Positions 1-13,761 are shown, counted from the stretch's first letter. The stretch is 64,000 bases of DNA from an uncultured Nitrososphaerales archaeon (GCA_963709405.1 CAVPXM010000054.1:32881-96880), one strand, 5' to 3'. The notes: a model not told the origin generated them from the sequence alone. Translations and numbers: made by a program.

Positions 1-289
1 GATATATAGATACTACTTTACGCTTCAAAGAAGCAGAATCTTCATTTTGAAGTACAATAGCGGTGACTTCGTCAGAAGAACCACCAGATGCTGATGTCTT
101 TCCTCTCCTGGGCTCTGGTAGTATGGATAATGAATTGTTTGCCTCGCGAATAATAACAACTGGATCTCCAGCCTTAAGATGCATTTCAGTTAACCATTTT
201 TTCGGTAGGGATAAAATGTAAGTCGATCTTCCCGTAAACTGTATTTTACGTACTTCACTGTTTTTAGAGCCAAGATCGTAAGAGCTCAA
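1..289 (-). CDS. Phosphate uptake regulator, AbrB/SpoVT-PhoU family (5' part; runs off window)
   Basis: Manual translation from TTG at 289: MSSYDLGSKNSEVRKIQFTGRSTYILSLPKKWLTEMHLKAGDPVVIIRE; the RKIQ..G.STY..SLPK.W motif is the AbrB N-terminus of archaeal PhoU regulators; pst operon nearby. Confidence 0.85.
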   Translation of the reverse strand, partial: MSSYDLGSKNSEVRKIQFTGRSTYILSLPKKWLTEMHLKAGDPVVIIREANNSLSILPEPRRGKTSASGGSSDEVTAIVLQNEDSASLKRKVVSIY

Positions 290-335
290 TAGAAAAGGTA
301 ATATGTCGCACTAATAAACATGTTATGGCAATCGT

Positions 336-382
336 TCATATAGACCTATATACCTATAGTCGAACTATATAGACTATTTAGT
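336..382. promoter_or_regulatory. Tandem CTATATAG-like array (candidate Pho box) upstream of AbrB-PhoU
   Basis: tcatatag, ctatatac, ctatagtc, ctatatag (365-372), ctatttag; similar arrays precede pstS, pstC, pstB and the 12614 gene. Confidence 0.6.
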
Positions 383-967
383 CACAGCTTGTGTCGACTA
401 CAAATATTATGAGTAATGTGCAAAATATTTATTTTTTAGTAGGATTGTTTGTCAATTCTATTAATAGTTTTTTATATCTTACCACCGGATGGCACTCCAC
501 TGTACATTTCTAAAAGACAGGATTTAACAAGGTATGCATTTATTACGATGTCCTGATGCCCATCTCCTGGCAGGGTAATGTGATTTCTTATATTGTACTA
601 CTAAACCAGCTAATATTGCATAACCGGTTTTTAAATTCAAAAATTTGGCCTTCGCAGGCATGTGAATATCTACATAAACAGATAGAAGATTGGATAAGAC
701 AAGGTGGGTTCCGCGAACACCGCCCTGGATAGCGCAATTCTTTTATTATTATTTTTGCAGATCGGTTATAAATTCTCTGACTCCAGCTAGTCTAAATCTT
801 CTAATTCTATTATTGAGAGTTAAGCAAATCTAAGAATTTCATATAGTACTGTCATACTATTTAAGGAGATAGCATAGGTTCCTCATAATTAGCTAGAGGA
901 TCTGTCAAACTATCAAGTCTACCTTCGCGTGAAAATTTATAGTAAATCTCGTGCTCAAGTACAGATA

Positions 968-1042
968 TGCGAAGTGCGGGATTTGAACCCGCGATCCCGA
1001 GCTTGGGAAGCTCGTACCTTAACCAGGCTGGGCTAACTTCGC
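968..1042 (-). tRNA. tRNA-Gly(CCC)
   Basis: Reverse complement GCGAAGT TA GCCCAGCCTGGTTAAGGT A CGAGC TTCCCAA GCTCG GGATC GCGGG TTCAAAT CCCGC ACTTCGC A folds as a cloverleaf; no intron, no encoded CCA. Confidence 0.95.
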
Positions 1043-1340
1043 AATATTCATTTTAAAATTAGAAGGCAAAAATAATAACGTTACGAATACAAAGAATGGT
1101 ATTAGGTGAGCCTATAAACTCTGAATTGAGATGAGATTTTAACACTTTCTAATCCCATTCGATGTTGTTATTCGAATAATGAAGCGCTAATTATCATCTT
1201 ACAGATAATATATCTATCTAGTTAGCGATATTATTGGCTCTTAAGCCATTCTATAATTCTATTAAGGATCGAATTATGCAAAAGATCTTCATTCTAGCGA
1301 TATAAGAAAGTAAATTCTAACACAATGATTCTAGGAAAAG

Positions 1341-1967
1341 ATGATAGACCTAGTTAGAGTAATTATTTATGATCCCTCTCTGATAAATAAACAATTGTTC
1401 AATTCAAATAAGGATGGCGAAAACACAAATAAACTCCTTGCAAAGCTTACCGAATTTGACACCAATATACGTGGAGCATATCTCGTTAATCTTATTTCTA
1501 TCCGTGGAATAATCAAAGAAGTGATATCATATCATTTTTGTTCTGACAACGATGGGGATGATAAACGTAAACAATTCGTATCGGTGTTCCTGAACGATAG
1601 GTATTCATTTTCATTTGATATTATTGACATACTTGAAGAAATCCTGAAGCATAATTACTCAGATTTAATCCAAGAATATTCGAAACTGATCAATAGACTC
1701 AAAGAGATGATTAAATTTGGAAATTGGTTATCCTGTTCAAATCTTGATATGTCCAAGGAATATCTAGCAAAACATGATTTTATGAATGAAGATAAAATCC
1801 AATTAGTATCTTACGATAATATAGGACATACAAATTATAAAGAAATAACGAAAACCGAAATGGACGAAAGACTAGTAGATTGTTTGGACATTTATCTAGC
1901 TCTTGAAGATATCAGGGCTGAGGTCAGAGATCGGGTGCTAACCGGTCGCAATAATAGATCTGCATAA
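1341..1967 (+). CDS. Hypothetical protein
   Basis: 208-aa ORF with protein-like composition, no recognised motif. Confidence 0.6.
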   Translation: MIDLVRVIIYDPSLINKQLFNSNKDGENTNKLLAKLTEFDTNIRGAYLVNLISIRGIIKEVISYHFCSDNDGDDKRKQFVSVFLNDRYSFSFDIIDILEEILKHNYSDLIQEYSKLINRLKEMIKFGNWLSCSNLDMSKEYLAKHDFMNEDKIQLVSYDNIGHTNYKEITKTEMDERLVDCLDIYLALEDIRAEVRDRVLTGRNNRSA

Positions 1968-2384
1968 TGATTTGTGCAGTATAATCTTTAATGATTTAAG
2001 TTTAGTATAACAGTTCCGCATAAAGATTCTAATCTTGTATTAGTTGTTAATTTGACGTAGGATTAAAAATAGTGATTTCAGGAATTATTAATACTACGTA
2101 AGATAACAGGCAGGCGTGAGATTTTATCATAGACCCTTAAAATGATGAATTAATGAGTTGTGACTGACTTAAAATAGACGGTATTGATATTGTCTTTTCA
2201 AACCGGAGAGTTAAGTTCGTCTTAATTCACATGACTAATTGTGTCAATTTCACGTAAGACAATGATAGTAATCCGGGAATAAATTTCTTGTAAATAGTTC
2301 AAAGAATAAATAAAATGTAATTGTCGATTTTATTCTAAACCATCGTAAGCCTCACTTTATATAAATCTGATTTTAATAATTGGT

Positions 2385-2498
2385 ATGGCCTATATGAAAG
2401 TCTGCTCAACCTGCAAAGGTGCTGGTTTAATACTATGAGTAGATGAAAGTAATATTAATAAATTAGTCATTGAGGACTGTCCAGATTGTAATTGTTGA
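2385..2498 (+). pseudogene. Zinc-finger microprotein (CxxCxGxG...CPxC) with in-frame TGA
   Basis: MAYMKVCSTCKGAGLIL*VDESNINKLVIEDCPDCNC*; TTTATATAAA at 2356-2365. Confidence 0.5.
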
Positions 2499-2676
2499 CA
2501 CCAAGCTGTGTCGATAAGAGATGCTTTTCATGGTTAACTTCTTGCAAATGAGTTCTACAAGAAGTCTCTTCGTCGTATAATAGTTAAAATATCAGGTTTA
2601 TTTTAAAAATGTGGTGAATCCGTTTTATAATATTTATATAACTGGGATATCATAATAATATTACTTATTCTTTAAG

Positions 2677-3585
2677 ATGATGAAAAATTCAACTATATGT
2701 AAAATGTGTAATAAAGACGGTAAGACCATAACAGATCCTGAGTCAGGAGAAATCATCTGCAGTAATTGTGGTATGGTCATATTGGAAAATGCTCAGGAGA
2801 ATCGTGCTGAATGGCGCGCCTTTAATGTAGACGAGGCAAAAACCAGAAGCCGTGCCGGAATGCCTATATCTTTGGCAAGGCATGATATGGGACTTGCTAC
2901 TATAATTGGACGAGCAGATAAAGATGCCAGTGGCCGTGGATTGGATGCTTCCGTCCGTTCTACCATGGACAGGTTGAGAGCATGGGACTTTAGAACTCAG
3001 GCCTACTCTCCTGCAGATAGAAATCTGCGTCACGCATTTAGTGTACTTGAAAGAGTTAAGGACAAACTAGCTCTATCAAATGCAATAGTGGAAAAGACTG
3101 CTTATATTTATAGAAAGGCCCAGGAAAAAGGACTGGTGCGTGGAAGAACTATACCATCAGTCTTAGCTGCATCTGTTTATATCGCCTGTAGGGAAATGGG
3201 GACTTCCAGAACACTAAACGATATTGCAGTACTTAATAATATCAAACGTAAAGAATTGGCAAGAACTACTAGGCTTCTAATATTGGAGTTGGACCTTAGA
3301 GTACCGATGATTGATCCAATGAAATGCATTGCGAAGGTAGCTAATAGGACAAAGCTAAGTGAGAAAACGAAGAGGTACGCAATGAATATTATGAATCATG
3401 TTACTAAAAGTGGTATATCGGCTGGCAAGGATCCGATGGGACTAGCTGGTTCAATTCTTTACCTATCTTCCAAGAATTCAGGTGAGAATATAACCCAAAT
3501 AGATATCGCTGAGGCAGCTGGTGTAACTGAAGTAACGATTAGAAACCGCTTCAAGGATCTGAAAAACCGACTCGATTTAAATTAG
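2677..3585 (+). CDS. tfb: Transcription initiation factor IIB (TFB paralog 1)
   Basis: Zn ribbon CKMC..DPESGEIICSNCG, B-reader EWRAF, cyclin repeats (GLVRGR, GKDPMG), HTH GVTEVTIRNRF. Confidence 0.97.
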   Translation: MMKNSTICKMCNKDGKTITDPESGEIICSNCGMVILENAQENRAEWRAFNVDEAKTRSRAGMPISLARHDMGLATIIGRADKDASGRGLDASVRSTMDRLRAWDFRTQAYSPADRNLRHAFSVLERVKDKLALSNAIVEKTAYIYRKAQEKGLVRGRTIPSVLAASVYIACREMGTSRTLNDIAVLNNIKRKELARTTRLLILELDLRVPMIDPMKCIAKVANRTKLSEKTKRYAMNIMNHVTKSGISAGKDPMGLAGSILYLSSKNSGENITQIDIAEAAGVTEVTIRNRFKDLKNRLDLN

Positions 3586-3734
3586 ATTTTTATTCTTTGT
3601 TTTTATTGTGAATATTTTGTCTTTTGAGAGCGAATATTATTAAAGCAGAGCTAGGTTCTTAAAGGAAATGACAACAATATGATTTTTCTGCAGAATTTTA
3701 GGTAGCGAGCAAGATCATAATTACAAGTACCTTT

Positions 3735-4295
3735 CTACTTTTGTAAACGTCCACATTTGCTACAGAATTTGGCCTTTATTAAAATCTGATGATTACATAC
3801 ATTACATCTTTTATAATTCTCCAGGCCTGTTGTTGACTTTGTAGATTTTCTATCATACAAGCTTTGGTGCTGCGGTTTAGGTAATGTATACTGATCCTCC
3901 TCAATTTCACTTTCTCGTCTCGTATCATTTTTTCCGACATTGCCACCAATATTTATAAAGCCACCAATCCCGAAGCCTGAATTGGGGGCGGAAGCAGAGG
4001 CCAAATCAGGCAGCATATCACCACCTGTCGAATCCTTCATTGATGTTCCCTTCTGGATAGCATTCTTCAGTTCTAAAAGAACACGGATCATAAGAAAATT
4101 CGCAGCTGAAAAAGAAATTAGATATGTCAAGAATTTAGAACAGAATTCAGTTTCACTCATTTTTCCTTCTTTATATTGTTGGTGTGATTCTGAAAAATGT
4201 CTATATAAGTTTAGTGTATCATTATTTTGACTTTTCAATTTCTCTGATAATGCACCTAGGACGTCTACACCAAAAGACAATACTATTCTTATCAA
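3735..4295 (-). CDS. Hypothetical protein with C-terminal zinc ribbon
   Basis: C-terminal CNVC..AKFCSKCG; start uncertain. Confidence 0.7.
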   Translation of the reverse strand: MIRIVLSFGVDVLGALSEKLKSQNNDTLNLYRHFSESHQQYKEGKMSETEFCSKFLTYLISFSAANFLMIRVLLELKNAIQKGTSMKDSTGGDMLPDLASASAPNSGFGIGGFINIGGNVGKNDTRRESEIEEDQYTLPKPQHQSLYDRKSTKSTTGLENYKRCNVCNHQILIKAKFCSKCGRLQK

Positions 4296-4942
4296 CGTGG
4301 GTACTTATTAATTAATTCATTGACTGACCGCTTTTATATTTACAAGTATGAAAAAAGATCTGGAGAAGATGATAGCGATTTAGAGATCACTCCGGGATGC
4401 ATGTGACCAAAATTAGAAACGATATACAACTAGAATTGAAAAATGTGAATATGAATATGAATACATATATTCAAGCTAAATCTTGCCATCACCATGATCA
4501 ATTGATATTTATAGTCCAGTAACTTTGCCACGCTTAAAGTATCATGAAAGGTTTTTATCTAATATTTCATGTTTGACTAACACTTGCGTACCTGGTATTC
4601 ATGTCAGCAATCAAGAAATCTGATATTGTGTTTGACAGATTTACTAACTTTGAAAAACTTTACTTGACAGAAAAAATTCTCTTTATCAATACACTTTATC
4701 CATCTATACATAGCATCAACAATTAAAAGTACTGGTTGGCTGATAATTGTGCATTATCCAGGTATTCGTGACCTGTCGACTTAAGACATGAACAATGATA
4801 TTGGGCTTCAAGAAAATAAAATTAGAAGGACTTACTACGGATTGTGAAATTTTATATAATGAATAATATCTGTTGTACACATCATAAAAAGATAGGTATC
4901 TTCTACGACCTGATCTGCGTGGAGTCGAACTAAATAATGTAA

Positions 4943-4995
4943 TTACATAGTTCTACATAGATCTATACGAACTCTATCCAGAACTAAGATAACTA
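4943..4995 (+). promoter_or_regulatory. pstS promoter: octamer array plus ATAACTA box
   Basis: ttacatag 4943, ctacatag 4953, ctatacga 4963, ctatccag 4974; ATAACTA 4989-4995, 27 nt before the start. Confidence 0.6.
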
Positions 4996-5015
4996 GCTAT
5001 ATCTTATCAAAAATA

Positions 5016-6146
5016 ATGTCAAAATGCGTTATGAAATCTGTAGTAATTGTAATAATGACTTCATTACTACTAACGGGAATCGTAACACTCAGTATGTCTG
5101 AACGGTCGTATGCCCAGCTTCTTCCTAAGCAGATGCAGACGTCCGGTCAATCAAATATTAATGGTGCAGGTGCAACCTTTCCCTTCCCATTAATTGATAC
5201 ATGGCGAGTACAGTACCAGAAGGTCAAGCCAGATGTGAATATTAATTATCAGTCAATTGGCAGCGGCGGAGGTATTAAGCAATTTACGGCTAAAACCGTA
5301 GATTTCGGTGCTTCAGATGCTCCGCTTTCAGCTGCGGAAAGAGCAAAAGCTCCAGGCGCGGTACACATACCAGAAACAATTGGTTCTGTAGTAGCAGCTT
5401 ATAATATTCCAGGCATTCCTGATAAGGGGCTCAAGCTTACTGGTCCAATCCTTGCAGATATCTTCTTAGGTAAGATAAAGAAGTGGAATGATCCACGAAT
5501 TCAATCGTTAAACCCAGACAAGAAACTTCCAGCAGCTGATATCGTGACGGTTCACAGATCAGATGGGTCAGGCACGACTTTTGTATGGACTAATTATCTG
5601 TCAGATGCAAGTCCGCAATTCAATCAGACAATTGGAGCCTCCAAGTCAGTTCAATGGCCGACTGGTGTTGGAGCTCCTGGTAATGAAGGTGTGGCAAACG
5701 CAATTAAGGGCTCACCTAACACTATTGGATATATAGAATTGAACTATGCTCTACAAACTAAAACACCCTACGCATTTATCCAGAATAAGGCAGGCAAGTT
5801 CATTGAACCAACCTTAGAATCAGTCAAGCAAGCCGCAGCGGATGTAGCTGCAAAAGGCTTACCAGCTGGAGATAAATCATGGGAAAAAGTGTCATTGCTT
5901 AATGATAACGGAAGCAATGCCTATCCTATCGCAAGCTTTTCTTACTTGCTTCTGCCAAAAGACCTGGGTACCAGTGCTAATATGAACCAAGCAAAAGCAA
6001 AGGCGCTGGTTGATTTCATTAGCTGGGCAATTACTGATGGACAGAAACTAGCATCAAATCTAGGCTATGTTCCACTTCCAGACCAAGTTGTCAAGCTTAA
6101 TCAAGATACAATCAAATCGCTAACGTTCAATGGAAAACCACTCTGA
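5016..6146 (+). CDS. pstS: Phosphate ABC transporter substrate-binding protein
   Basis: Signal peptide; GAGATFPFP, YQSIGSGGGI, DFGASDAPL, HRSDGSGTT motifs. Confidence 0.98.
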   Translation: MSKCVMKSVVIVIMTSLLLTGIVTLSMSERSYAQLLPKQMQTSGQSNINGAGATFPFPLIDTWRVQYQKVKPDVNINYQSIGSGGGIKQFTAKTVDFGASDAPLSAAERAKAPGAVHIPETIGSVVAAYNIPGIPDKGLKLTGPILADIFLGKIKKWNDPRIQSLNPDKKLPAADIVTVHRSDGSGTTFVWTNYLSDASPQFNQTIGASKSVQWPTGVGAPGNEGVANAIKGSPNTIGYIELNYALQTKTPYAFIQNKAGKFIEPTLESVKQAAADVAAKGLPAGDKSWEKVSLLNDNGSNAYPIASFSYLLLPKDLGTSANMNQAKAKALVDFISWAITDGQKLASNLGYVPLPDQVVKLNQDTIKSLTFNGKPL

Positions 6147-6198
6147 GCCGATACTAAAATCATGACGAAGCCATGATATCAACAACTTTTTTTACATA

Positions 6199-6251
6199 CT
6201 ATATAGACTATTATGATCTATGGTATGACTATATGTAAATCTAATATAACC
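6199..6251 (+). promoter_or_regulatory. pstC promoter: octamer array plus ATAACC box
   Basis: ctatatag 6199, ctattatg 6208, ctatggta 6218, ctatatgt 6229; ATAACC 6246-6251. Confidence 0.55.
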
Positions 6252-6391
6252 ATGGATTCTTCAAAAATAACGGGCGAGTATTTACGGTAAGCGGATCTAT
6301 CCATCTAAATACTGACATCAAGGAAAAGGTCTCGTCTTTTCTAGTAGGTGATGGGAAAAGAAAAAAAATTGGCGATAAATTATTTCATGGT

Positions 6392-7300
6392 GTGGTCATA
6401 GGTACCGCAGCTTATACATTATTCATTATAGTTATTGTAATGATCTCAGTCGGTTTAGGGTCGGTGAAGATCTTTTCTTATGAAGGATTTATTGGATTTG
6501 TGACTGGTACCAATTGGAATGCAGTTGAGGGCCGCGAATCCTATGGCGCTCTACCGTATATTATCGGGACGTTAATGAGTTCAGGAATTGCATTGCTCAT
6601 TGGCGTACCTATGAGTCTAGGTATAGCATACTTTCTATCCGAAATGGCCCCTACTAAAGTAAGCTCGCCATTATCTTTTGTAATAGAATTGCTAGCAGCT
6701 GTTCCAAGTATAATTTATGGTTTGTGGGCTCTCTTTGTATTTAGATTCCTGATAAAAGACTGGATAGAAACACCATTGTATAATACCCTTGGACCCTATA
6801 TACCATTCTTTAACCAGGCACCATTTGGTCTTGATGTATTTACAGCAGGGATAGTTCTTGCGATAATGATCATTCCTATAGTCTCATCGATCAGTCGAGA
6901 TGTCATGAGGGCTGTTCCAAACACTCAAAGAGAGGCAGCATACAGTCTTGGAGCTACTAGGTGGGAGACAGCGAGGATTGCGGTTTTTCCTTATGGCAAG
7001 TCCGGCTTGTTAGGAGCTTCCATTTTAGGATTTGGCAGAGCGGTAGGTGAAACCATGCTCGTTACATTGATAATTGGAAACGCAATAGGCCCTGCAGCGA
7101 TTCCAACTACACTTTTCTCACAAAGCCAGACACTCTCAAGTTTGATTGCTAATGAATTTAACGAAGCATCTTCTGATTTACAGCTATCTGCTTTAATTGG
7201 TCTTGGAGCAGTCTTACTCATGCTAACTATGATTATTAATATTATTGCAAGGCTTATGGTTTCAAAAATGGTAAAGGTAAGCCCAGGACAGAGGGAATAA
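6392..7300 (+). CDS. pstC: Phosphate ABC transporter permease
   Basis: ELLAAVPSIIYGLW, EAAYSLGATRWET, GRAVGETM; frame open back to 6245 so the true start may be upstream. Confidence 0.96.
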   Translation: MVIGTAAYTLFIIVIVMISVGLGSVKIFSYEGFIGFVTGTNWNAVEGRESYGALPYIIGTLMSSGIALLIGVPMSLGIAYFLSEMAPTKVSSPLSFVIELLAAVPSIIYGLWALFVFRFLIKDWIETPLYNTLGPYIPFFNQAPFGLDVFTAGIVLAIMIIPIVSSISRDVMRAVPNTQREAAYSLGATRWETARIAVFPYGKSGLLGASILGFGRAVGETMLVTLIIGNAIGPAAIPTTLFSQSQTLSSLIANEFNEASSDLQLSALIGLGAVLLMLTMIINIIARLMVSKMVKVSPGQRE

Positions 7301-7305
7301 AAAGA

Positions 7306-8301
7306 TTGAATAACAATAATGAGCATAAGGAAGAACAAGGGAAAATATCGAAAGATAAATCCCTTAGTACTAGTATTAGTTACAGACAGGTTTTTGATGA
7401 CATATCATCGAAGCACACTTCCAAGCGTAGAATTACTAACAAGATTGTTAGTATTGTTGCCATAATTTTTGTTATTGGAGCCATAATCCCGCTAGGTAGT
7501 ATTTTACTAGAAGTGATAAAAAATGGCATAGCAGTAATAAGTATACAGTTTCTCACGCAACCACCAGGTTCTGTTGGTTCTGGCAGCGGTGGTATCGGCC
7601 CAGCCATTCAAGGAACGGTAATTACTGTTGGGCTAGCATCGTTAATTGGAGCTCCTATTGGAATACTTTCTGGAATCTATCTATCAGAATATGCTCCTGC
7701 CGGAAGTGTTAAGGGCGGAAGAGAAAGAGCAGTTCGTATCTTTGCCAATACTATTAGACTATTCAATGATGTTCTCACAGGTTTGCCGTCTATAGTTATC
7801 GGTATAGTTGGGTATGTGACTATAGTCCTTGCTATCAACTCGTTCTCTGTATGGGCTGGAGCTTTTGCTCTTTCAATAATAATGATACCTATAATATCCA
7901 GAGTAACTGAAGAAACACTAAAGTTAGTACCTAATTCACTCCGTGAGGCTGGGTATTCTCTTGGTATTTCGAAATCAAAGATTACCCTTTTTATAGTTCT
8001 CAAAAATGCCAAAGATGGAGTACTGACTGGCGTTATCTTAGCCATATCAAGAATAGCTGGAGAGACCGCTCCTCTTATAATGACTATACTCGGCACGAGC
8101 CTGTTCTTTACAGGCCTCACGGGTCCAGTTGATGCATTACCCTTGAGAATATGGAGATTGGCCTCACAACCATATGAATCTGCGCATGCTTTTGGATGGG
8201 GTGCTGCACTTGTCCTCATACTCATGATTCTTGTTTTAAGCGCAAGTATAAGGATAATTGCCCACGGCAAAGGCATCAGAGTAAGAACTGAGACTATATA
8301 G
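7306..8301 (+). CDS. pstA: Phosphate ABC transporter permease
   Basis: IYLSEY, GLPSIVIG, REAGYSLG, RIAGETAPL. Confidence 0.96.
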   Translation: MNNNNEHKEEQGKISKDKSLSTSISYRQVFDDISSKHTSKRRITNKIVSIVAIIFVIGAIIPLGSILLEVIKNGIAVISIQFLTQPPGSVGSGSGGIGPAIQGTVITVGLASLIGAPIGILSGIYLSEYAPAGSVKGGRERAVRIFANTIRLFNDVLTGLPSIVIGIVGYVTIVLAINSFSVWAGAFALSIIMIPIISRVTEETLKLVPNSLREAGYSLGISKSKITLFIVLKNAKDGVLTGVILAISRIAGETAPLIMTILGTSLFFTGLTGPVDALPLRIWRLASQPYESAHAFGWGAALVLILMILVLSASIRIIAHGKGIRVRTETI

Positions 8302-8321
8302 TATCCTGAAAGATCATTTCA

Positions 8322-8371
8322 CTACTTAGTCTATATTGTTCTATATGAATTATGTAGGGAATGCATAACTA
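8322..8371 (+). promoter_or_regulatory. pstB internal promoter: octamer array plus ATAACTA box
   Basis: ctacttag 8322, ctatattg 8331, ctatatga 8341, ttatgtag 8350; ATAACTA 8365-8371. Confidence 0.55.
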
Positions 8372-8396
8372 TAGCGTGGTTAGTACAGATTTGTAA

Positions 8397-9251
8397 TTGA
8401 GTAGTGGTGATAGTAATAAGGAAGTTACAAGTTATGCTCCAGAGCGGAATAATATTGATAATAATGAGGTGCTGGCACCAGCAACCACACAGGCTAACAT
8501 CAAGCTATCAATTCGGAATGTTAATGCATGGTTTGGAAAAAAACATGCAGTGAAAGACGTTAGTTTGGATGTTAAGGAAAATAGTGTTACAGCTTTTATC
8601 GGACCTTCTGGATGTGGTAAAACAACTCTTCTTCGTTGCATAAATCGCATGCATGAGATGACTCCAGGAGGAAAATCAGACGGTGAAGTCGTGTTGGATG
8701 GTCTTAATATCTATGATAAATCTTCGGATCCTGCCATAATAAAACGGCGTATAGGTATGGTTTTTCAAAAGCCTAATCCTTTTCCAACCATGAGTATATA
8801 TGATAATGTGGCCGCAGGATTGAAACTTAATGGTGTTAGGGATAAAAAGCTGATCCGTGATATCGTCGAGCAGAGTCTTGTGGAAGCTGCGCTATGGGAA
8901 GAAGTAAAGAATGAACTTCATATGCCTGGAATGGGTTTATCAGGCGGACAGCAACAGCGTCTTTGCATAGCTAGAGCACTTGCCATGCAACCTGAGATAC
9001 TTCTAATGGACGAACCAACTTCTGCTTTAGATCCAATTGCATCCTCTAAAATTGAAGAGCTTGTCCAACATTTGAAAGAACATTTGACCATAATTATCGT
9101 AACTCACAATATGCAGCAAGCAGCCAGGGTGTCAGAATATACTGCATTTATGTATATCGGTGAATTAATAGAATATGACCAAACCAAAGATATATTTAAG
9201 AATCCACACAAGGAATTAACTGAAAAGTACATTTCTGGAAGATTCGGCTAA
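8397..9251 (+). CDS. pstB: Phosphate ABC transporter ATPase
   Basis: Walker [44 protein letters not shown]-terminal YISGRFG. Confidence 0.98.
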
Positions 9252-9325
9252 AAATGTATGAAATTTATGCGAACGAAATGTCATGAAGAGTCTGATAACG
9301 ATGTTTTATGGAATTGTAGTCATGG

Positions 9326-9985
9326 TTGTTGTGGCTTTTGGCTAGACTGCTAGATGTAGGTTTAGATCGTATTCGTAATATAATTACGGATATGGCTAGC
9401 CTAGCTGAAATCTCGGTGTTCTCTGCTTTAGAGGCGTATCAAAGCGAAGGCAATGCAAAGAAACACATTTTTGAGCAATCAGAAAAGCTCAAAATGCTAC
9501 AAGACGAGGTAACTGATCTTGCAGTAGAACTGATAGCGCGCTATCAACCTGTTGCTACTGATCTCAGGTTTATCAAGTCTTGTATGGAAGTTGCATATGG
9601 ATTTTCTAGGTATGGACGCTACTCCTATGACATTGTAGATGTACTTGAAACGCTTGGGCCTTTATCGGGTTGTGATAAGTCTGCAGTTTCAGAAATGGCA
9701 ATAACTGTCAGAAAAATGATTCTACTAAGTGTAGATGCGTTACAGTCTAGAGACAAAACGGCTGCGCAGGATCTATATCAAATGGATGACACAGTCGATA
9801 CTCTTTACAGAAAATATTTGCGGGAACTTGTTTCATCCCTATCAAAAAATAGTTCAGAAGAACCACGGTGCTATATTTCGAATTTACTTATTTTAAGATA
9901 CTTAGAGCGAATTTCGGATCATGCATGTTACGTTGGAGATTCTATTTATTATATCATAACTGGTACCTCTAGTCCCAGGAGATAA
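9326..9985 (+). CDS. phoU: Phosphate transport regulatory protein PhoU
   Basis: IARYQPVATDLRFI, DDTVD, RYLERISDHA; follows pstB. Confidence 0.95.
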   Translation: MLWLLARLLDVGLDRIRNIITDMASLAEISVFSALEAYQSEGNAKKHIFEQSEKLKMLQDEVTDLAVELIARYQPVATDLRFIKSCMEVAYGFSRYGRYSYDIVDVLETLGPLSGCDKSAVSEMAITVRKMILLSVDALQSRDKTAAQDLYQMDDTVDTLYRKYLRELVSSLSKNSSEEPRCYISNLLILRYLERISDHACYVGDSIYYIITGTSSPRR

Positions 9986-10088
9986 CTGCCGTTACTAAAT
10001 ATCTAGAAATAGTATATCAATTTATTAACATCTATAAGCATGTGATCCATTGCTTGAGTACTGTCAATATCATAGTTAATTGTTGTAC

Positions 10089-11083
10089 TTACACAGATAG
10101 GTTACATTTTTGATTACCTACATGGGTTACACTTTGCTGCTTGTTCTTGTACGTACGGTGGATGTAATTAATCTTTAGAAACATCTCTGATGGAGTAAGG
10201 CCATTTATTCCTCCATGTTCTCTGGTTTCGTTATATGCTTTAACAAAGATATCATATCTTATTTTACCATCATCTGTGTTTGGTATATCCTCAACTGCTA
10301 AAAACTCATTCTTTACTATCTTGTTATATGCTTCTACCTTTCGTTGTAACTGTGGATAGGAATTGGGTATTTGCTTATCCTTTATCTGATTGTGTACAAG
10401 AAAACGTCTAAATATTTTGGATGTAAACTGTTTTCGATTATCATGCATTATCTTTCTGGGCTTGCCATTAATGATTATCCATTCTTCCAGTACGTTAATA
10501 ACATCTACTGACCTCTTTCTTTCAGACCACTTGCTAGCTACTTTTCTTGAACAATCGTCCAGACAGCTAATGATGTAATTCCTTTGACTAGAATTACTCA
10601 GATAGAAAGGTCCAAGGATATCCAACTGCGCACCTGTACCATATCGTTAGGTCGTTTCATTGCAAACCTTTTGTATATTTTATTATTCCTTGTCTTACAG
10701 TTTAGAACATTTAGACCATGTCTCTTTAGTATCTTGTATAAAGTTCGAGTGCTTAATGAGATTCCAACAACCTTTCTTAATCTAAACTTGATCCTATTAC
10801 ATCCAAATCTCTTGGTTAATCGTAGATCAAGTATTGTCTCCTGTATTTCAGATGTTATCTTCTTGTACTTGATATTATGAGGTCTTCTTGAGTTATCGGA
10901 TAGACCTTCTGTTCCTTTATGTTCATATCTCTTATTCCATTTGTAATACGTCTTCCTGGAGACACTATACTTTTTACAAATATTGCTTATGGTGTCACCA
11001 GTCCATTCTTTTTCGTGGATTAGGTTGAATCTAGTTATGATTTCTATATGTATACACTTCCTGACAGCAGAAGTGTAACCCAT
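10089..11083 (-). pseudogene. IS481 transposase, frameshifted near 10625
   Basis: HTH (SRKTYYKWNKRY..GLSDNSRRPH) and DDE core (QMDILGPF, DDCSR, KVEAYNK); short insertion relative to copy 2. Confidence 0.88.
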
Positions 11084-11159
11084 GTCTGTAATCCATGTGA
11101 ACTATTTTAAGGATTTCTGTTTTTCTTAATCTTAGTATAGTTCACCTCTGTTTACATAC

Positions 11160-11295
11160 ACATCCAGTAGTTTTTTCGGATAGTAATCCATTCGAGGCTC
11201 ACCCTCACTACCGTCTTTATCCATTTGTTAAGGAGATGCCACAGTTAGCTAATCGAGGCTTCACCCTCATACAGACAGTCGTGGTTAACACCTTA
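11160..11295 (-). ncRNA. Predicted bridge/seek RNA of the IS1111-type element
   Basis: Two GAGGGTGA(A)GCCTC hairpins each flanked by segments matching target (TGTCTGTA, TAGCTA) or donor (ATGGATTA) junctions; RNA ends approximate. Confidence 0.75.
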
Positions 11296-11329
11296 ACTAT
11301 AATGATAATAATAATTGAATTAATCATCA

Positions 11330-12388
11330 TCATCCTAACCTCTCATACATTCGTCTTTCTTTCATAATCCAATAAGCAACCTTCAGCAATTTGGCTGCAG
11401 CAGCTACAGCAGCTTTAGAATTACCTTTCTTTTTTGCTATTCTATAATAGAACTGAGCTATGTTACTATTCTTTTCAGTGCGAATATGTGCGTGAACACA
11501 TTCTAGCATTATCCATCGTAAGTATTTGCTACCTGCCTTTGTTATGCTGCTTCCATAATGTGTTACTCCACCAGAACTATGTGTTGATGGTACTAGACCT
11601 GCGTACGAACACAAGTGGTACGAATCAGGAAACCTATTGATATCTCCAATTTCACTAACGATTAACAAAGCTGAATAATATCCAATACCTGGAATCGTCA
11701 TCAGTAATTTAGCGATCTCATCTTCTTTAGCAAGCAGTAGTATCCTCTTAGATACAGTATTAACTTCATCATTCAACGATTTAATAACACGAAGACAACC
11801 ATTAATTCTATAATCATCATATCCTTCTAGTTTATCCATATTCCTTCTGGTAAATGTACTGGTACGATCGACATCTGAGGCCTCTATACCCTTCATAAGC
11901 GTAATGCTATGTACCTTATTCTTTAGTTTAGTTCTCATTCTTACAAGTGCGGATCTATGCCTAACAATGTCTCGTAGTTCCATTATTCTTTTGTTTGGAA
12001 CATAGCATTCAGCTATGTATCCTCCTCTCAGTAGATCAGCTAATTTAACCGCATCAAGTTTGTCGGTCTTTATTTTGGCCGAGGCAATAGCTCTTGTCTT
12101 GGTTGGATTGGATAATCGTATATCTAGGTGTCTCTTTCTCAAGCATTCATAAATGTTGTACCACATACCAGACGATTCCATTACGACCTTAGCGTTATTG
12201 CCTGGACTGAGACTATCGAAGAATTCATTCACTTTTATCAGGTTATTGTCTACTCTAGAATTATCCAGTACCTTTCCTTTTTCGTCAAGAACGGCTACCT
12301 GTAGATAGTTCTTGTGAACATCCATTCCCACAAACATACTCTTCTTACATACGCTACCGTCTGCTTTAGACTTACATAATTCGTTCAC
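11330..12388 (-). CDS. IS110-family DEDD recombinase/transposase, apparently intact
   Basis: GMDVHK, VVMES, KTDKLDA, TIPGIG, SEIGDINRF, YAGLVPSTHSSGG (catalytic Ser), GSKYLR; alternative ATG start at 12337. Confidence 0.95.
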   Translation of the reverse strand: MNELCKSKADGSVCKKSMFVGMDVHKNYLQVAVLDEKGKVLDNSRVDNNLIKVNEFFDSLSPGNNAKVVMESSGMWYNIYECLRKRHLDIRLSNPTKTRAIASAKIKTDKLDAVKLADLLRGGYIAECYVPNKRIMELRDIVRHRSALVRMRTKLKNKVHSITLMKGIEASDVDRTSTFTRRNMDKLEGYDDYRINGCLRVIKSLNDEVNTVSKRILLLAKEDEIAKLLMTIPGIGYYSALLIVSEIGDINRFPDSYHLCSYAGLVPSTHSSGGVTHYGSSITKAGSKYLRWIMLECVHAHIRTEKNSNIAQFYYRIAKKKGNSKAAVAAAAKLLKVAYWIMKERRMYERLG

Positions 12389-12546
12389 ATATAGTTAGCT
12401 ATAATGTCACCTATGTTAGGAAGTACAACAGCTAACCAAACCAATTTATCGTGTGCTATCCACAAGTACTATCATTGTATTTAGATTTCAATCTAAATCT
12501 AATAACAGCTTGCCACGACAAATAACTCGATACTAATTAACGTATT

Positions 12547-12592
12547 CTATATATTCTATATAGTAGTATATAGTGCTATTAGATATATATAG
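12547..12592 (+). promoter_or_regulatory. Five-unit CTATATAG-like array upstream of the 12614 gene
   Basis: ctatatat 12547, ctatatag 12556, gtatatag 12566, ctattaga 12576, atatatag 12585. Confidence 0.6.
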
Positions 12593-12613
12593 GTAGTTTG
12601 TTGATACTTAGAT

Positions 12614-13078
12614 ATGATAGAATCATCTACAGAAAAAATATTTCCAAAAGATAATAACGTAAAGATAGAGCAAACAAGGAGCCAAAATGATGATAAGATG
12701 GTTCAAAAGTCACTTACAAATGAAACTGGACTTACGATTATTCAATTATCCCGACAGATTAAGGATCTTGACAAGAAAAACACAAGAATAGAAGAACTAC
12801 TTTCATCTATCAAGAAAGACATTAAGAATGTAGTACTGGCCATAAAGGACAGTCAACAACTCGCATCAGACGGAGCAACTAGAATGAAGGAATTTCACGA
12901 TCAGATAGCTCAATTACAAATGCAAACACAAAAAATTGAACAGGTTATTAATGACGACTCTGTGTCTAAAAAATCAAAGAAAGTTAAGAAAGATAAGAAA
13001 GATAAGAAGCAGAGTAATAAGGAAAAGGATAAGAAAAGCAAGAAGAAAGCAAAAAGTATGAAGAAAAAACAGAAGTAA
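12614..13078 (+). CDS. Coiled-coil protein with Lys-rich C-terminal tail
   Basis: Heptad-like core; tail KKSKKVKKDKKDKKQSNKEKDKKSKKKAKSMKKKQK. Confidence 0.75.
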   Translation: MIESSTEKIFPKDNNVKIEQTRSQNDDKMVQKSLTNETGLTIIQLSRQIKDLDKKNTRIEELLSSIKKDIKNVVLAIKDSQQLASDGATRMKEFHDQIAQLQMQTQKIEQVINDDSVSKKSKKVKKDKKDKKQSNKEKDKKSKKKAKSMKKKQK

Positions 13079-13122
13079 TCGTCGTATATACACGAAAGAG
13101 ATATGCGGAGTCGTAATTCTGA

Positions 13123-13761
13123 TTGGAATTATATTTATTAAGACACGGTGAGTCAGCAAAAATTGCTGGTTTGAGCCGCGGATCTAAAGTCAGTAATGGA
13201 AATTCAGGCCTTACAGAAAATGGGAGAAAGGAAATTACCAGAATTGCAAAATCAATAAAGAGATTCAATACTACTTTTGATGTCATCCTAACAAGCCCTC
13301 TCAATTCTGCGATGCAAACTGCAAAGATAATTTCCAATACCTTCAAAATGAAAAATAAAATAGTGATTTGTGAAGAATTAGTTCCGGAAGGTAATAAACT
13401 AAAATTGTACAATAGGCTGCACCAGTTTACATCAGAATCGTCAATATTCATGGTCGGTCATGAGCCGTATCTCACGAATATAATCGATGGAATCATTTCG
13501 CAGCACCGAAACAGAAGCAATACAACGAGATCAGTAGCAAGTAGTACAAGAGTGAAAGGTATGACAAGAGTGGGAAGAGGTATCGTCCTAAAGAAAGGGG
13601 GATTGGCCAAAATAAGGATAATTTCAACTGCTCCTGAATTAAGAGGAGAGTTAAGATGGTTACTTACACCAAGGATCCTCAAATCCCTGTATGGAGAGTT
13701 CACCACGGTCGAAAAAATCAGGCAGAAAAAGGAAAACTCGGCCATTGAAAAAGTTTTGTAA
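13123..13761 (+). CDS. sixA: Phosphohistidine phosphatase SixA-like
   Basis: LYLLRHGE, LTENGR, ILTSPL..AMQTA, MVGHEPYL, LKKGG, LRWLLTPR. Confidence 0.9.
   Translation: MELYLLRHGESAKIAGLSRGSKVSNGNSGLTENGRKEITRIAKSIKRFNTTFDVILTSPLNSAMQTAKIISNTFKMKNKIVICEELVPEGNKLKLYNRLHQFTSESSIFMVGHEPYLTNIIDGIISQHRNRSNTTRSVASSTRVKGMTRVGRGIVLKKGGLAKIRIISTAPELRGELRWLLTPRILKSLYGEFTTVEKIRQKKENSAIEKVL

Follow-up and report, generated by a model that had tools for sequence, protein, structure and literature searches.

Phased palindromic arrays at phosphate promoters as a candidate Pho box of a Nitrososphaeraceae ammonia oxidiser

Five promoters within 12.6 kb of an archaeal phosphate uptake locus, those of abrB-phoU, pstS, pstC, pstB and the orfK-sixA pair, each carry an array of four to six copies of the palindromic unit W-CTATATAG-W (W, A or T), spaced 8-12 bp and mostly 9-11 bp apart. 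The locus lies in a stretch of 64,000 nucleotides (the window; G000:C54:32881-96880) from a source genome, labelled G000, of 4.83 Mb and 37% GC, which is rich in insertion sequences (IS), is divided into 100 contigs and is 91% complete. Its nearest relatives are metagenome-assembled genomes labelled Nitrososphaeraceae, and an archaeal amoA gene was found in it. As the best explanation of the whole, we favour on balance that the arrays serve this soil ammonia oxidiser of the Nitrososphaeraceae as its Pho box, that the fusion protein AbrB-PhoU is their autoregulated binder and that, by analogy with a known archaeal system, they act in activation.

The arrays, whose units were scored against CTATATAG throughout, lie between about -90 and about -40 with respect to the start codon. 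The repeat unit is palindromic, with A or T on both flanks in unsymmetrised counts, and is not a direct repeat with an 11-bp period, as the spacings have their mode at 9-10 bp. An initial annotation of this DNA, made from the sequence alone, had reported arrays upstream of abrB-phoU, pstS, pstC, pstB and orfK-sixA, and all five lie where it placed them (Table 1). Positions and spacing held up in general; the true register of array E is the one given in Table 1, and array D has an extra perfect unit, overlapping the stop codon of pstA, that had been overlooked.

Arrays A-D supplied a 10-bp matrix, with which chains of three or four units, spaced 9-11 bp apart, were scored across the genome. Array E, which lay outside the training set, and its duplicate elsewhere in the genome were the best non-training site, with a score of 26.7 compared with 22.5 for the next. 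When each array was held out in turn and chains of four units were scored, the number of genome peaks that reached the held-out score was one for array D, four for E (two of them training arrays and one the duplicate of E), nine for B, nine for C and 62 for A (with three training arrays each for B, C and A); with chains of three units, the corresponding numbers were three for D, two for E, six for B, 63 for C and 23 for A. Five genomes simulated with a third-order Markov model gave a mean of 0.4 peaks at a score of at least 24 and none at 26 or above, against four and four observed. Upstream regions of long open reading frames (ORFs) contained at least one near-perfect unit in 223 of 1768 cases (12.6%), and a phased pair of near-perfect units in only 4 of 1768, two of which are arrays A and E. 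The octamer itself is not over-represented genome-wide (107 copies, about 160 expected by composition). The initial annotation had allowed that such arrays might be equally frequent elsewhere in the genome; the leave-one-out, Markov and upstream counts all indicate that they are not. Two simpler approaches were set aside: counting mismatches in chains (at most two mismatches) recovered only D and E and missed A-C, for which reason matrix chain scoring was used instead, and Tandem Repeats Finder (TRF) returned only fragments of arrays, with scores no better than those of many other places.

The arrays are conserved at orthologous promoters. We found pstS in 32 of the 41 relatives searched, and in an alignment of six same-genus pstS upstream regions (L003, with only 173 nucleotides upstream, was left out) 64 of 79 columns are invariant at -79 to -1, compared with 17 of 141 at -220 to -80. 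In one relative, precisely one more 10-bp unit is present upstream of pstS. The order of pstS stop codon, T run, array and pstC is the same throughout the genus and recurs in other genera, and the pstB array is also retained in relatives. Chains of three units with a score of at least 15 within 220 bp upstream were then counted in 11 loci from relatives (169 kb): they occur at the abrB-phoU, pstS, pstC and pstB promoters (fractions in Table 1) and are absent upstream of pstA (0/11) and phoU (0/9). These four promoters account for 29 of the 34 peaks in the 169 kb; the background in the source genome is 14.9 peaks per Mb. The pattern persists where the genes are dispersed or reordered (L064, L066 and L069), which suggests that the array of each transcription unit is kept by selection and not merely inherited. 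A locus from another family, L070, has no arrays. Lack of conservation in orthologous promoters, which the initial annotation had named as evidence that would speak against it, was thus not what we observed.

Several observations connect the arrays with AbrB-PhoU, in which an N-terminal domain of the SpoVT/AbrB fold (Pfam MazE_antitoxin PF04014, residues 17-61, E 4.6e-8, above the curated cut-off) is joined to two PhoU stretches identified by Pfam. AbrB-PhoU was found in 26 of the 26 relatives searched, often adjoining pst genes. For the family, we took 76 of the best 80 loci, all from Nitrososphaeraceae, four having been dropped with too little upstream DNA. An unbiased count of 8-mers found CTATATAG in 49 of these 76 abrB-phoU upstream regions compared with 24 of 2081 other chunks, and TATATAGA in 63 of 76 compared with 70 of 2081. 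At least one unit with at most one mismatch is present in 76/76 of them and at least two units in 50/76, and the distances between paired units have their peaks at 9-10 bp and at 18-21 bp. A homologue is present in 115 of 121 genomes across the phylum. In a sample of 30 of these genomes from about 25 families, chosen from the match list before the DNA was seen, a unit occurs at -200 to -1 of abrB-phoU in 24, compared with 3 of 30 at -400 to -201 and a baseline of 12.6% in the source genome. Phylum-wide, the motif stays with the gene whatever its neighbours, and the unit often belongs to an ATATAG-N11-CTATATAG dyad whose proximal unit is near -30. The distant paralogue on contig C63 has no unit upstream. 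A link of the arrays to an autoregulated AbrB-PhoU, as proposed earlier, is strongly suggested by the presence of the motif upstream of its own gene throughout the family set and in most of the phylum sample. A regulator of the PhoB type had been expected to be absent; in agreement, the PhoB-type winged helix (PF00486) gave 0 matches in the 91%-complete genome, in a search that matched 10 of 14 control genomes. A search for a solved structure of an AbrB-PhoU fusion found none and returned only PhoU chains.

The elements between the arrays and the start codons are conserved less uniformly. ATAAC had been noted on the gene-proximal side of four arrays (326-321 on the minus strand, 4989, 6246 and 8365), and it is present at all four; at pstC it is not conserved, the ATAACC found here being ATAATG in relatives. 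Nor does it stand in place of a canonical TATA box at abrB-phoU, as had been suggested: TTTATT (313-318, minus strand) directly follows ATAACA. Here, CATAAC(A/G)TGTTTAT is retained in 7/7 same-genus abrB-phoU loci, and among 67 family loci CATAA is proximal in 27 and distal in none. At pstS, ATA(A/T)CTA and CTATATC are conserved within the genus, and the ATAACTA of pstB recurs in two other genera. By sequence comparison, then, ATAACT/ATAACA is a conserved proximal element at pstS, pstB and abrB-phoU and not at pstC. A genome-wide promoter profile from crude ORF calls showed a weak TTATA/TTAAA/TTTAT peak at about -31, consistent with mRNAs that are mostly leaderless, and was too crude for scoring the strength of TATA elements. 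The region of the transcription factor B (TFB) recognition element (BRE) and TATA box sits about 30 nucleotides before the start codon, which suggests leaderless or short-leader mRNAs. The initial annotation had also remarked on AGTCGAACTA as common to the abrB-phoU and pstS upstream regions. It does occur in both, at 358 and 4923; with six genome copies against about 11 expected it is unenriched, and it is not conserved in relatives. Elsewhere in the genome (C27:18250-18403), a gene for a CorA-like Mg2+ transporter has a pair of near-perfect units upstream, at a distance of 20 bp from each other; ATAACTA precedes the first of them.

Outside the locus, the best array (G000:C73:44799-44842) lies about 100 bp upstream of a gene for a Ppx-GppA exopolyphosphatase (ppx). 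It is retained in all five same-genus relatives that have the gene, and units are visible in three of six more distant ppx loci, from three other genera. Because the best array outside the locus precedes ppx, the transcription units pstS, pstC-pstA, pstB-phoU, abrB-phoU, ppx and orfK-sixA make up a coherent predicted Pho regulon. In three same-genus relatives (L214-L216; G002:C129, G001:C59 and G006:C591), a shorter ppx paralogue is preceded, at roughly 170 bp, by TCTATTTAG and TCTATAGAA with a spacing of about 10 bp. Another array-like site, with a score of 21.3 and followed by ATAACTA, is found at C97:5040-5120 (L219:140-220), with about 370 bp and small ORFs between it and a downstream gene for a HisKA/HATPase_c histidine kinase. 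Genes for KdpA, a Rieske protein, a pyridoxal-phosphate enzyme, a polyketide-cyclase-like protein and a transposase fragment were considered as regulon members and rejected, their array-like matches being at noise level.

Array E would drive a conserved gene pair, orfK-sixA, which is retained in four same-genus relatives. In this respect the earlier description of a unit beginning at 12614 was sound; it requires the correction that the pair is unlinked to pst in relatives and here lies beyond a nested IS pair. In the relatives, orfK is on contigs other than pst, array E is kept there while the upstream DNA diverges, and it is conserved at orfK in relatives without adjoining IS. In the source genome, a 1-kb segment (12432-13442) that contains array E, orfK and the 5' part of sixA is duplicated with 98.5% identity at G000:C30:10152-11169, beside a transposase gene. 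OrfK matches no family in Pfam or NCBIfam and has no informative neighbour in the Atlas. Its body is probably a coiled coil, and its long tail is rich in lysine; that it might bind polyphosphate or nucleic acid is pure speculation. SixA-like genes also lie within a few kilobases of pst genes in two other genera (L066 and L069), and a wider link of SixA-like phosphatases with phosphate uptake loci is suggested.

Table 1. Arrays, promoter elements and genes in the window. Array and unit positions refer to the window; negative numbers are relative to the start codon. The last column gives loci of relatives with an array at the corresponding promoter.
Feature	Position	Strand	Details	Relatives' loci
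Array A, upstream of abrB-phoU	336..381		units 336, 346, 354, 365, 374; spacings 10, 8, 11, 9; 0-3 mismatches	6/7
Array B, upstream of pstS	4943..4981		units 4943, 4953, 4963, 4974; spacings 10, 10, 11; 1-3 mismatches	7/12
Further unit at pstS	4997		CTATATCT; -19..-12	
Array C, upstream of pstC	6199..6248		units 6199, 6208, 6218, 6229, 6241; spacings 9, 10, 11, 12; 0-5 mismatches	8/11
Last unit of array C	6241-6248		CTAATATA; at likely TATA position	
Array D, upstream of pstB	8322..8357 (8294..8376 with flanking units)		units 8322, 8331, 8341, 8350; spacings 9, 10, 9; 1-2 mismatches	8/9
Extra perfect unit of array D	8294-8301		overlaps pstA stop codon	
Element proximal to array D	8365-8376		ATAACTATAGCG; includes CTATAGCG at 8369	
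Array E, upstream of orfK	12547..12592		units 12547, 12556, 12566, 12576, 12585; spacings 9, 10, 10, 9	
Last unit of array E	12585-12592		ATATATAG; TATA position, -29..-22	
abrB-phoU proximal promoter	311..326	minus	ATAACA (326-321), then canonical TTTATT (318-313), 24-29 nt before TTG start	
pstS proximal element	4989..5004	plus	ATAACTA at about -27..-21, plus unit CTATATCT	
pstC proximal element			CTAATATAA	
pstB proximal element			ATAACTATAG at about -32	
orfK proximal element			ATATATAG at about -29	
abrB-phoU	1..289	minus	5' part, rest beyond window start; full gene G000:C54:32024-33169; 381 aa, start at 289	
tRNA-Gly	967-1043		ARAGORN	
Unknown ORF	1341-1967		between abrB-phoU and pstS	
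TFB paralogue	2677-3585		between abrB-phoU and pstS	
Zinc-ribbon protein	3735-4295	minus	between abrB-phoU and pstS	
pstS	5016-6146	plus	phosphate-binding protein; Pfam PBP_like_2, E 1.2e-41	
T7 run after pstS	6187-6193	plus	likely archaeal terminator, directly before array C	
pstC	6284-7300 (6392-7300 from first canonical start)	plus		
pstA	7306-8301	plus	Pfam BPD_transp_1	
pstB	8397-9251	plus	Pfam ABC_tran	
Stand-alone phoU	9326-9985	plus	Pfam PhoU	
IS481-like element	10072-11091 and 12394-12435		split by nested IS110; blastn against genome; nested pair has Pfam rve, HTH and IS110 transposase domains	
IS110 element	11092-12393		nested in IS481-like element	
orfK	12614-13078	plus	lysine-rich ORF; no family	
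sixA	13123-13761	plus	SixA-like histidine phosphatase	

Gene calls in the window were checked with Pfam and NCBIfam, and transfer RNA genes were called with ARAGORN. The arrangement of ORF 1341-1967, TFB paralogue and zinc-ribbon gene between abrB-phoU and pstS is the same in three same-genus relatives (L061-L063). The ATG with which pstC starts in same-genus relatives is ACG here (6284-6286), and the first canonical in-frame start is a GTG at 6392, 36 codons downstream; pstC may therefore start late or use a non-canonical codon in this genome. The nested IS pair (10072-12435) stands between phoU and array E, just 3' of phoU. Its IS481-like member has dozens of copies genome-wide.

How these arrays might work can be sketched as follows. 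Three to six copies of a 10-bp palindromic unit precede each phosphate transcription unit, their 9-11 bp spacing placing them on one face of the helix, and each array ends about 10-15 bp upstream of the BRE/TATA region. AbrB-PhoU, acting as a one-component regulator, would bind the unit through its dimeric swapped-hairpin AbrB domain and fill the array cooperatively through its PhoU domains, which may read phosphate status directly or through PstB/PhoU; it would also control its own gene. Under phosphate limitation, the bound array would help TATA-binding protein (TBP) and TFB onto the weak ATAACTA-type promoters of pstS and pstB. Activation at these two promoters is favoured because the arrays lie upstream of weak TATA elements and because there is a precedent in Halobacterium. 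Judged by their distribution and conservation, the arrays are very probably a real Pho-specific cis-element, and AbrB-PhoU is a likely binder of them; whether their net effect would be activation, as the analogy has it, we regard as evenly poised. What endures of the initial annotation is a phased, promoter-specific and conserved phosphate operator, without its side claims on ATAAC at pstC and on AGTCGAACTA.

The units resemble TATA boxes, and the proximal one lies at about -30 in several lineages, so that repression or competition with TBP fits this position as well as activation does. With the same operator and binder, AbrB-PhoU could, at high phosphate, coat the array and the TATA-like units and exclude TBP/TFB, with limitation releasing the promoter. 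In keeping with this, proximal units overlap the TATA position at orfK (12585-12592), pstC (6241-6248) and pstB (8369-8376), a further unit lies between the TATA element and the start of pstS (4997), and abrB-phoU often has a unit at about -30 in the phylum-wide dyad. Family resemblance points the same way: most proteins of the AbrB family act as repressors, and PhoU of bacteria regulates negatively. On the other hand, most units are at -90 to -40, upstream of BRE/TATA and thus in the usual place of archaeal activators, and the poor TATA element (ATAACTA) at pstS and pstB would need help. Moreover, the pho boxes of Halobacterium salinarum are reported to be needed for induction (PMC6560208). 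Net repression is accordingly a possibility that we take seriously and lean away from. The operator might instead be bound by some other transcription factor, AbrB-PhoU being only a member of the regulon. A histidine kinase gene (C97) and a SixA-like phosphohistidine phosphatase gene lie near arrays, which hints at another signalling layer, and the signature residues of the AbrB hairpin did not predict the presence of the motif. However, no DNA-binding protein other than AbrB-PhoU is consistently linked to pst, AbrB-PhoU was found in every relative searched, the motif tracks its gene across the phylum regardless of neighbours, and the search for PF00486 found no PhoB-type domain in the genome; we consider another binder improbable. 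Still further down the scale, and hardly credible to us, is that the arrays are structural DNA (for bending, histone positioning or multiple TBP sites), chance low complexity or the remnant of a mobile element. The units do contain TATATA with a 10-bp period, which favours bending and wrapping, and array E is in a duplicated 1-kb segment beside IS elements. Neither bending nor TBP binding, however, needs the conserved C/G flanks and the palindromic W flanks, CTATATAG is rarer in the genome than its composition predicts, and the arrays are confined to phosphate genes and persist at orthologous promoters even as the DNA around them diverges; array E, for its part, is found at orfK in relatives without IS alongside.

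Some of our observations count against an AbrB-PhoU-bound activating Pho box, besides the resemblance of the units to TATA boxes. The relatives are kin, and their counts suggest more independence than there is. In the leave-one-out runs, A and C reach only middling ranks (up to 62 and 63 peaks). The genome exceeds the Markov simulation only at chain scores above about 22, so that weak regulon members are indistinguishable from noise. The AbrB hairpin signature residues fail to separate phylum-wide loci with the motif (12/13) from those without it (12/17). Four RNA runs yielded only assembled contigs of 95-99% likeness that span intergenic DNA and are uninformative on starts, ends, levels or a response to phosphate; one RNA-library run held a fraction of 0.42 of the sampled words.

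A more far-reaching idea, which we put forward tentatively and would not call probable, is that CTATATAG is an ancient, near-universal operator inherited with AbrB-PhoU across Thermoproteota, in which the units are TATA mimics and a one-component sensor competes or cooperates with TBP at rows of decoy TATA boxes. If true, such TATA-decoy logic would be specific to archaeal-type promoters and would explain phosphate control without PhoBR. Ammonia-oxidising archaea drive nitrification in soil and ocean, often under phosphate scarcity. For phosphate sensing in archaea, the arrays supply a defined operator sequence, a small coherent predicted regulon and a single candidate sensor-regulator. They also point to the lysine-rich OrfK and the SixA-like phosphatase, both uncharacterised, as candidate phosphate-starvation genes, and offer candidate phosphate-controlled promoters to a group without genetic tools.

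Bacterial Pho boxes, bound by PhoB in E. coli and PhoP in Bacillus and Streptomyces, are also tandem phased repeats located just upstream of the core promoters of phosphate genes that include pstS. In both cases the gene of the regulator is in its own regulon and signalling is coupled to PstSCAB/PhoU, a coupling that is proposed here. In bacteria, direct repeats of 7 bp or 6 bp recur every 11 bp and are bound by an OmpR-family winged helix. The arrays described here consist of palindromic 8-mers that recur about every 10 bp, the core promoter is of the archaeal BRE/TATA type and PF00486 was not found in the genome. With such a unit and period, and with no match to a PhoB-type domain, this candidate element is not a bacterial Pho box. 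AbrB-PhoU has the same fold (PF04014) as the swapped-hairpin binders AbrB, SpoVT and MazE, including archaeal Sso7c4. Swapped-hairpin domains contact two adjacent major grooves as dimers, and along AT-rich DNA they often form oligomers. Bacillus AbrB is not known to have a strict consensus; the unit described here, by contrast, is well defined, and the effector domain is PhoU. The sequence CCTATATAGG, which contains CTATATAG, has been used simply as a generic duplex, in an unsuccessful attempt at co-crystallisation with the AbrB-fold protein Sso7c4 (PMC5222340).

A 'PHO stimulon' has been described in archaea, and the paper states that its mechanisms are unknown in Archaea generally (PMC6864096). 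Our literature search found no Pho box for ammonia-oxidising archaea and no AbrB-PhoU binding site in Nitrososphaerales, in agreement with the initial annotation, which knew of no such box; an archaeal pho box is known from H. salinarum. According to PMC6560208, the pho boxes of the pst1 and pst2 promoters of H. salinarum are essential for induction and are ascribed to PhoU transcription factors; Kliemt et al. cite Furtwangler 2010 on the Halobacterium pho box. Compared by promoter, regulator and phosphate response, the element described here and that of H. salinarum, as summarised in PMC6560208, are both cis-elements in archaeal pst promoters, and both have a PhoU-domain regulator as the named or candidate binder and no PhoB two-component system. 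In the window, arrays are found in the pst promoters, and the genome encodes a PhoU-domain regulator with an N-terminal DNA-binding domain. The element of H. salinarum is needed for the phosphate response, whereas here the response is predicted by analogy; the organism there belongs to Halobacteriota and the one here to the Nitrososphaeraceae of Thermoproteota. The array system is thus a variant of a kind of element known from one haloarchaeon, and the features noted here are the three to six phased copies at each promoter, an array of its own for each of pstS, pstCA and pstB-phoU, and the extra members ppx and orfK-sixA.

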